Part shown: positions 7,221 to 9,218 of the stretch, piece after piece
How positions within the stretch are numbered: position 1 is the first letter of the stretch
How the letters are laid out: each line of letters begins with the position of its first letter
DNA from: Eledone cirrhosa
Taxonomy: Eukaryota
Length of the DNA stretch: 64,000 bases
Direction of reading: 5' to 3'
Assembly (NCBI GenBank): GCA_964016885.1
Contig: OZ024745.1
Location: 41,168,001-41,232,000, forward strand
Program-made: the position numbers and the translations under genes
Notes under the pieces: model-generated
What the model saw: only the letters and a program-made list of their open reading frames with translations
The model's database searches: none
What the model was told of the DNA's origin: nothing

Positions 7221-7225
<5 letters not shown>

Positions 7226-8178
7226 CAGGCACACATATATATATGCTCGTATCAGTTTACCGAACATTTATTATAATGTTCGCTTTGTTAGTTTGTAAAC
7301 AAACGAACAGCCTGATTTACGCCGTACAGTGTTTAGGCAACCACGTCACCTTTTTGTTCAACACTGACACAGGAACGATGTACTAGTTTCAAGCTTGTTA
7401 GCTATCGTCAGCACCGTATACCTTTCTGCCAGATGGTTGAACGTCCGAAAGTATATACTTTCCTTATGAAAATTAACAGCTGAGCAGCCTAATTTGCATA
7501 TCGAGTGAGTTCAGTCGGCCAGGCGCACCGAAAACGATAAGTGGAATAGAATGAAACGAAATTTCATTTCTCACTCTTAGTACGGCACTTACTTAAGTGT
7601 AAGTATGTATGTATACGTACATACATATATGTATACAGACGTACAGTAGCATGTATATATATATATATATATATATACATACAGGCACACATATATATAT
7701 GCACGTATCAGTTTATCGAACATTTGTTATAATGTTCGCTTTGTTCGTTTGTAAACAAACGAACAGCCTGAATTACGCCGTACAGTGTTTAGGCAACCAC
7801 GTCACCTTTTTGTTCAACACTGACACAGGAACGATGTACTAGTTTCAAGCTTGTTAGCTATCGTCAGCACCGTATACCTTTCTGGCCGACTGAACTCACT
7901 CGATATGCAAATTAGGCTGCTCAGCCGTTAATTTTCATAAGGAAAGTATATACTTTCGGACGTTCAACCATCTGGCAGAAAGGTATACGGTGCTGACGAT
8001 AGCTAACAAGCTTGAAACTAGTACATCGTTCCTGTGTCAGTGTTGAACAAAAAGTGACGTGGTTGCCTAAACACTGTACGGCGTAAATCAGGCTGTGCGT
8101 TTGTTTACAAACGAACAAAGCTAACATTATAATAAATGTTCGGTAAACTGAATACGTGCATATATATATGTGTGCCTG

Positions 8179-8227
<49 letters not shown>

Positions 8228-8652
8228 GCTACTGTACGTCTGTATACATATATGTATGTACGTATACATACATACTTACACTTAAGTAAGTGCCGTACTA
8301 AGAGTGAGAAATGAAATTTCGTTTCATTCTATTCCATTTATCGTTTTCGGTGCGCCTGGCCGACTGAACTCACTCGATATGCAAATTAGGCTGCTCAGCT
8401 GTTAATTTTCATAAGGAAAGTATATACTTTCGGACGTTCAACCATCTGGCAGAAAGGTATACGGTGCTGACGATAGCTAACAAGCTTGAAACTAGTACAA
8501 CGTTCCTGTGTCAGTGTTGAACAAAAAGGTGACGTGGTTGCCTAAACACTGTACGGCGTAAATCAGGCTGTGCGTTTGTTTACAAACGAGCAAAGCGAAC
8601 ATTATAATAAATGTTCGTTAAACTGATACGTAAATATATATATGTGTGCCTG

Positions 8653-8716
<64 letters not shown>

Positions 8717-9215
8717 TAAACGGAATAGAAAATGCTGACAAATTGTTCACAGTTGAAAAATGGTTTAATTAGGAATAAAAGAGTATTAGTGATTGTATGG
8801 GTTAGTATTCAGTTGTGGTTTTAAGTTTTTAAGTTTTTACCGGTTGCGCATTTCTAAATGCTTTTCAAAAATAATTTTGAGATAGAGTGTCCGTGCTGTT
8901 TGCTCTGATCTGAGCAAACAGCACGGACACTCTATCTCAAAATTATTTTTGAAAAGCATTTAGAAATGCGCAACCGGTAAAAACTTAAAAACTTAAAACC
9001 ACAACTGAATACTAACCCATACAATCACTAATACACTTTTATTCCTAATTAAACCATTTTTCGACTGTGAACAATTTGTCAGCATTTTTTATTCCGTTTA
9101 CCAATATATAGTAACTTGTGTGTTACACCTCTATTCTTTTAACTATATATATATATATACATGCTACTGTACGTCTGTATACATATATGTATGTACGTAT
9201 ACATACATACTTACA

Positions 9216-9218
<3 letters not shown>
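7221..9218. mobile_element. Family B retrozyme-like head-to-head array (456-474 bp units); main body 7221-8657, tail 9160-9218 beyond a nested insertion
   Basis: Period 456 (7221/7677). Inversion at about 7882-7884 (CTG microhomology). HHRs at 7376-7416(-), 7832-7872(-), 7988-8028(+) and 8462-8502(+): CGGTG-CTGACGA-T AGCT aaca AGCT T-GAAA-CTAG-TA-CATCG. Confidence 0.85.
8712..9106. mobile_element. Family F fold-back element (arms about 195 bp, 6-nt spacer) with HHR-like motif at 8946-8982
   Basis: Near-perfect inverted repeat centred on 8906-8911. Single-arm relatives at 45922-46105 and 53312-53490. Confidence 0.75.

Follow-up and report, generated by a model that had tools for sequence, protein, structure and literature searches.

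A head-to-head hammerhead repeat array in Eledone cirrhosa ends at two fixed, paired sites and is likely a retrozyme copied by Penelope-like machinery

Our analysis of a 64,000-nt stretch of the Eledone cirrhosa genome (contig OZ024745.1; hereafter the window) supports a model in which the array at 7177-9219 arose when a non-coding hammerhead repeat inserted head-to-head, copies of this repeat end next to (TA)n at either a short or a long fixed site, and the repeat is likely a retrozyme copied in trans by a Penelope-like reverse transcriptase with a GIY-YIG endonuclease. We place the probability of this reading at about 0.8. Because fixed short and long ends mark Penelope-type copying, the AT tract within the repeat unit is likely not what starts the copying reaction.

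Results

The array consists of two divergent arms, a left arm of ~1.5 units on the minus strand (7177-7884) and a right arm of ~1.9 units on the plus strand (7882-9219), joined at an inversion junction where 3 nt (7882-7884) are common to both. Unit spacing is 456 in the left arm and 474/475 in the right, in agreement with an earlier note, made from this sequence alone, that described head-to-head units of 456-474 bp. The unit comprises a 432-nt body and a variable (TA)n tract of 24-57 nt in the array; numbered from the predicted cut site, it has 159 nt before the tract and then 273 nt after it that end in the hammerhead. The few substitutions between copies and the variable tract reported in the same note were likewise borne out. 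The four pre-tract segments differ by 4-8 substitutions per 159 nt and the two full post-tract segments by 1 per 273 nt, and the tracts measure 45 nt (7177-7221, at the left end of the array, in the position of the unit's internal tract), 24 nt (7654-7677), 42 nt (8183-8224) and 57 + 16 nt (8657-9159). The last of these is split by a fold-back, family F, beyond which the unit resumes at 9160, as had been described. On the right, the arm stops at the short fixed site, which lies 60 nt beyond the tract, and flanking (TA)n comes next (9218-9303).

The left arm has its 5' end at the central junction and, atypically, its 3' end inside the (TA)n tract. There it joins, at a 2-nt AT match, a broken LINE fragment with zinc-finger and endonuclease-like motifs (6290-7178, plus strand); that the array begins at the tract and severs this fragment, as the earlier note held, is evident in the sequence. 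The 3' continuation of the LINE, present in five other copies, is absent on the far side of the array. Since the right arm ends at the short site, the left arm would be expected to end at the site 117 nt past the tract. The simplest reading is probably that the left end is exceptional and that the 117-nt end was deleted together with the rest of the LINE, at or after insertion; rare priming in the tract with target loss is the alternative.

The array had been called independent of the other ribozyme array in the window. It is a separate insertion event, but its unit is homologous to that of family A, with 67% identity over 248 nt, and is 80% identical to a third relative at 3705-4193 (minus strand); the local alignment score of the unit against a relative was 130 and the shuffle maximum 37. 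The third relative carries its own hammerhead (C.A at 10.1-11.1, GUU) and no long tract, and it ends at the short site, beside the long end of family A within one (TA)n. The family A units, at 1-3556 of the window, are 100% identical to one another, which may reflect either a very young insertion or assembly collapse. A family A arm at another genomic locus (G000:C1:5738326-5752304) strings together 31 consecutive hammerheads and is flanked by one short and one long end.

In the 3.0 Gb genome, 1,406 exact matches were found to a 22-mer that immediately precedes the tract (reversed control, 0) and 40,289 to a hammerhead pattern common to the A/B/C group of families (control, 5). Over the array, every reading frame of at least 90 aa is of low complexity and spans microsatellite sequence; no Penelope-like protein matches were found inside the arms, and the unit contains no reverse transcriptase or GIY-YIG endonuclease reading frame. 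What we observe is thus a set of tandem units, each a few hundred bases long and equipped with a single type I hammerhead, without coding capacity or LTR, dispersed and in high copy number, and on every feature that can be examined from sequence the array is likely a non-LTR retrozyme belonging to a family of more than 1,400 units. No RNA data set was listed as containing the unit, which argues neither for nor against expression. A single 478-nt contig of the unit, of unrecorded kind, was present in one of two contig sets, from another organism, and is uninformative on expression.

Four predicted type I hammerhead cores, each with a GUA triplet, start at 7411(-), 7867(-), 7993(+) and 8467(+), the number and triplet given in the earlier note. 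The motifs span 7364-7429 and 7820-7884 on the minus strand, with predicted cuts after 7381 and 7837, and 7975-8040 and 8449-8514 on the plus strand, with predicted cuts after 8023 and 8497; the third has a U.U at the base of helix II and a palindromic minimal helix III, and the fourth has one helix I mismatch. In the array motif, helix I has 6 bp, helix II has 4 bp above the U.U pair, and helix III is a palindrome of 1-2 bp; Rfam returned no match in the window at gathering score. The core is intact in 83 of 103 copies of the genome-order sample described below; 79 of these 83 have GUA and all 83 have U.U at 10.1-11.1. Aligning 19 copies (14 distinct sequences) drawn from the three families A, B and C, we find 94% of cells paired (slid controls, at most 50%) and changes on both sides in 7 of 16 pairs, a covariation that represents few independent events because most of it comes from the split between families A and B.

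In free folding the hammerhead is not the minimum-energy structure of the monomer (z 0.26), and a monomer constrained to it is weak, at -1.6 kcal/mol; the predicted pairing of the helix III palindrome between two copies is -6.8 kcal/mol. Hammerheads of this kind have been described to act in dimers (PMC4209133), the U.U variant has been reported in axolotl retrozymes (PMC7229834), and of nine Xenopus retrozyme dimers assayed in vitro one was cut (bioRxiv 10.64898/2026.07.22.740005). Judging from the predicted structures, we infer that the unit RNA may self-cleave. The motif ATGCAAAT recurs ~90 nt upstream of the hammerhead core, at 8379-8386 (+), 7905-7912 (+) and 7492-7499 (-). It sits in a 12-nt block common to families A, B and C and could conceivably be part of an internal promoter; since its conservation within family B is merely in the top 23% of 8-mers (115 of 134), we do not claim an snRNA-type promoter. 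A bacterial promoter scan found nothing, its model being irrelevant to this genome.

One line of evidence for our model is a map of 3' ends. We took all distinct sites among the first 100 listed matches to the 22-mer, which gave 58 loci on contig 1. Two loci (L039 and L084) in which the element touched the locus edge were dropped, hits below 84% identity and short low-complexity hits were removed, and two loci contained two insertions each, leaving 58 insertions with 98 outer 3' ends. As the 22-mer lies upstream of the tract, copies that end in the tract would be caught. Scored by script, the 98 ends comprised 53 long ends (108-118 nt past the tract, 44 of them at exactly 117), and 38 short ends (45-65 nt, mostly 54, 56 or 60); of the remainder, the script put 4 in the tract and 3 at other positions. 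When the four tract calls were inspected again, two proved to be short, one other and one a true tract end, for corrected counts of 53 long, 40 short, 1 tract and 4 other; 93 of 98 ends therefore lie at fixed sites. In a second sample, of best matches (21 insertions, 36 ends, script scoring that was not re-read by eye), 14 ends were long, 14 short, 4 in the tract and 4 elsewhere. The sites used genome-wide correspond in the array to 8278-8284 (short) and 8341 (long) on the plus strand and are putative starts of reverse transcription. The earlier expectation that ends would be non-random with respect to the tract thus stands, but their position does not: 93 of 98 fall at fixed distances downstream of the tract and 1 of 98 in it.

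(TA)n directly follows 87 of the 98 outer ends. Because the unit outside the tract contains 47 other TA dinucleotides and 18 TATA/ATAT positions, the fixed sites are not chosen by target match alone. Moreover, family A has no TA run longer than 6 nt and yet ends at homologous sites (unit positions 229-234 and 302-304), and its right arm in the window ends at one of these, at 3556; the tract is therefore unnecessary for priming or targeting. Three copies (L019, L068 and L002) have 3' ends at fixed sites without flanking (TA)n, where the match is no longer than TA or TATA, an indication that the enzyme itself does not write the flanking tract.

The two kinds of end are paired. Forty of the 58 insertions are head-to-head, and where both ends of a pair lie at fixed sites one is long and the other short in 33/35 pairs by script (p=1.7e-8) and 34/36 after correction. 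The same 5-site haplotype is present in both arms of 17/20 insertions, with pairwise matches of 48/54 across arms vs 1,447/9,167 between insertions, and this shared subfamily haplotype indicates that both arms derive from one event or one source. Arms run through predicted cut sites (64/99 cross at least one, 16/99 two or more), which argues that the template is an uncut multimer or a re-ligated circle. Central junctions are scattered in position, with overlaps of 1-18 nt in 20/42; arms mostly start at unrelated positions, and the longer arm can be either one.

What, then, does the internal tract do? Plain internal tracts range from 9 to 135 nt with a median of 14 (n=119) and a commonest length of 10 nt, and since the relatives A and C have no long TA run, the tract looks like a slippage expansion. 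It is over-represented at 5' junctions: 12/84 arm 5' ends at junctions lie in it (p=0.004 if 6% are expected, 0.13 if 10%), as do 6/17 single-arm 5' ends, counted by eye (p=0.0003 at 6% expected), and both arms start in it at 4/42 junctions vs 0.86 expected (p=0.01). As (TA)n is its own complement, this pattern fits cDNA ends that annealed with each other as well as deletions that later arose between tracts. Among 100 loci, this window included, 5/6 nested insertions lie in the tract, which makes up 7.6% of element DNA; without this window the count is 4/5 (p=1.6e-4). These small numbers favor the earlier suggestion that each insertion creates new target sites. Likely, then, the tract is a passenger and a minor feature that helps build nested clusters in TA repeats. 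The same unidentified element of ~600 nt is present inside two different unit copies (L040:683-1273 and L061:1899-2520), in or just past the tract.

Two-end patterns also characterize Penelope-like families in this genome. Family D is represented in the window by a terminal repeat (9309-9657, minus strand) with its own hammerhead (9440) and a long end in the (TA)n shared with the array, and by a broken element (14162-16381, minus strand). Many of its copies have intact 713-aa frames with RWR, DKT and a CxCX5C linker. Elements of the Hydra clade have been characterized by a short ORF, a C-terminal GIY-YIG domain, RWK-like and DKT motifs, a CxCX5C linker, no CCHH, a hammerhead and a (TA)n target (PMC8557442); our assignment comes from reading the frame against this motif list, and on sequence family D has the Hydra-clade features. 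Its ends lie at +22 and +94 from the hammerhead cut, giving a tail of 72, and five inverted pairs, counted by eye, have one of each. Family D has a long TA/TG-rich tract in its 3' region, and its hammerhead shares the U.U pair and the GUA triplet with those of the array. Family G, a very young Hydra-type family with an 819-aa frame, ends at +47 and +211 (tail 164 nt), and its ends are mixed in 6/6 pairs in which both are visible. One of its loci (L207; G000:C3:218892500-218900500) has a hammerhead-like core in which U at position 4 is replaced by C and helix III is palindromic.

Fold-back F (8714-9143) is a head-to-head pair of Neptune-type Penelope-like 3' ends, of which the left arm is short and the right arm carries a 40-nt tail. 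Its sequence lies ~1 kb downstream of Neptune-type endonuclease domains, on the same strand, at 8/30 loci, and this linkage together with the two-end pattern identifies it as a truncated head-to-head Penelope-like insertion. The earlier placement of this fold-back inside the right-hand tract was correct. Another short fold-back by (TA)n, at 13680-13800 of the window and related to 4194-4240 and 4440-4490, is probably a further Penelope-like end. Very long simple repeats are present in the window as well: at 19198-27571 an 8-mer is repeated ~1,050 times, and at 30315-34901 a GGT-type 3-mer ~1,530 times.

We searched for an autonomous partner among four Hydra-type families and 42 GIY-YIG loci, in a genome that holds many more families. 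The unit has no DNA similarity above shuffles to the terminal repeats of families D, E, G and H, and at the 42 loci no terminal repeat is shared with the unit, which is present there just as neighbouring or nested copies. Family E is older, with ~85% identity between copies. What looks like a fusion at L030 is more plausibly explained by insertion into a copy that had already decayed.

Discussion

We envision a scenario in which tandem copies are transcribed and their hammerheads would cut as double hammerheads, yielding monomers that could circularise. A borrowed Penelope-like enzyme would nick both strands of a (TA)n, and one cDNA would start at the long site (117) and the other at the short site (54-60), each with an AU/UA match of just a few bases. 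The two cDNAs would stop at scattered positions, anneal by microhomology and fill in on each other, and the outcome would be head-to-head arms with a single tail. The internal (TA)n would travel as a slippage-expanded passenger that favors central joining or later deletion and offers a target for later insertions. Against copying in trans stands the finding that no autonomous partner was present among the families sampled. Tail lengths differ between families, at 57-63 nt in the array family, 72 in D, 164 in G and 40 in F.

A more specific version, which we regard as tentative and as having somewhat less than even odds, is that the insertion is made in one reaction by a dimer of the Penelope-like enzyme on a retrozyme RNA circle. 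The two subunits would start at the long and the short site from opposite strands, both would roll round the circle, and the cDNAs would complete each other with no separate primer for the second strand. If this is true, the strict pairing of long and short ends, shared by a non-coding family and several autonomous families within a single genome, would be the genomic fingerprint of an asymmetric dimer and would show directly that Penelope machinery serves animal retrozymes.

The head-to-head form could instead arise when a single cDNA or antisense template primes itself or folds back, in place of two separately primed cDNAs. Self-priming has been proposed for rotifer Penelope elements from junction palindromes (PMC3846280), and at 3/42 junctions in our sample (L056, L066 and L067) both arms start at the same position, with overlaps of 0-18 nt. 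However, a fold-back would give two identical outer ends unless a second fixed stop existed, arm starts are usually unrelated and either arm may be the longer, and self-priming alone leaves the short and long ends of 34/36 pairs unexplained. We consider this route unlikely.

Less probable still is that the unit is a mere terminal repeat of an autonomous Penelope-like element, its copies 5'-truncated and its tandem units produced by later amplification at the DNA level, the retrozyme RNA cycle being absent. Autonomous families and F, itself a truncated end, show the same two-end pattern, long arrays do exist (the 31 units in one family A arm), and local amplification from terminal repeats has been proposed (bioRxiv 10.64898/2026.07.22.740005). 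Yet in 58 + 21 insertions 0 arms extend upstream into coding sequence of the same orientation, and consecutive units follow one another with no reading frame between them. Each insertion has one haplotype across its arms and units whereas subfamilies vary between insertions, and partial units at 5' ends are in register with the repeat, as expected from a repeated template.

The earlier proposal that the internal (AU)n anneals to nicked genomic (AT)n and primes cDNA, so that copies end in the tract, could draw on the left end of this array, on the 4/36 tract ends scored by script in the best-match sample and on the (TA)n targets (87/98), but it is largely refuted as a main route and very improbable, since 1/98 ends lie in the tract in a sample whose probe is upstream of it and 93/98 lie at the fixed downstream sites, tract-less family A ends at homologous sites, the commonest tract is just 10 nt, and the tract is predicted to be self-paired in the RNA.

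Like the metazoan non-LTR retrozymes described in PMC7229834 and bioRxiv 10.64898/2026.07.22.740005, the array is a non-coding tandem repeat of low GC content with one type I hammerhead per unit and thousands of copies, and it co-exists with Penelope-like elements. Its U.U at the helix II base resembles axolotl HHR_Amex2 and its weak palindromic helix III resembles HHR_Amex1 (PMC7229834). Its unit of 440-480 nt is larger than the 170-400 nt RNAs reported in the same paper and within the 51-972 bp range of the preprint (10.64898/2026.07.22.740005). In contrast, the internal (TA)n, the head-to-head form and the fixed paired ends have no counterpart in the portions of these two retrozyme accounts that we compared.

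Insertions of Penelope-like elements have been described to carry a tail at one end of tandem or inverted copies and to target (TA)n (PMC8557442). The array shares with the endonuclease-bearing Hydra and Neptune elements of that study tandem and inverted 5'-truncated insertions, a tail at one end, (TA)n targets and a hammerhead in the repeat; unlike them, it has no reading frame, its tail is 57-63 nt and not 30-40, and it shows no sequence link to the autonomous families sampled. Anolis Poseidon offers a biochemical parallel: in vitro, the tail is delimited by two internal start sites, cleavage and extension take place on both target strands, ribozyme cutting is dispensable, and the start site did not differ between strands (PMC11167929). 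The array resembles Poseidon in having two internal ends downstream of the hammerhead, an AT-rich target and an uncut RNA that would be usable as template. It differs in that its template is a non-coding repeat and its pairs split the two sites in 34/36, whereas the Poseidon sites are without strand difference in vitro (PMC11167929).

The tail asymmetry itself is already published, and what we add is a useful quantitative fingerprint of long and short ends in a retrozyme family. Penelope-like partners have been proposed for retrozymes (PMC7229834 and 10.64898/2026.07.22.740005), in the sections consulted on grounds other than such ends. We found no report of tail-type paired ends in retrozymes in the literature searched, the coverage of which is incomplete, and the supplements of the preprint may list ends or families.

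What mobilizes animal retrozymes, and by what route Penelope elements come to form tandem and inverted insertions, are stated as open questions in the accounts compared here (PMC8557442, PMC7229834 and 10.64898/2026.07.22.740005). The link between retrozymes and Penelope elements has so far rested on co-occurrence and sequence trees. Hundreds of insertions of the array family can be mapped and carry the Penelope tail signature, and the pairing of one long with one short end provides a sharp rule for an in vitro reaction to reproduce.
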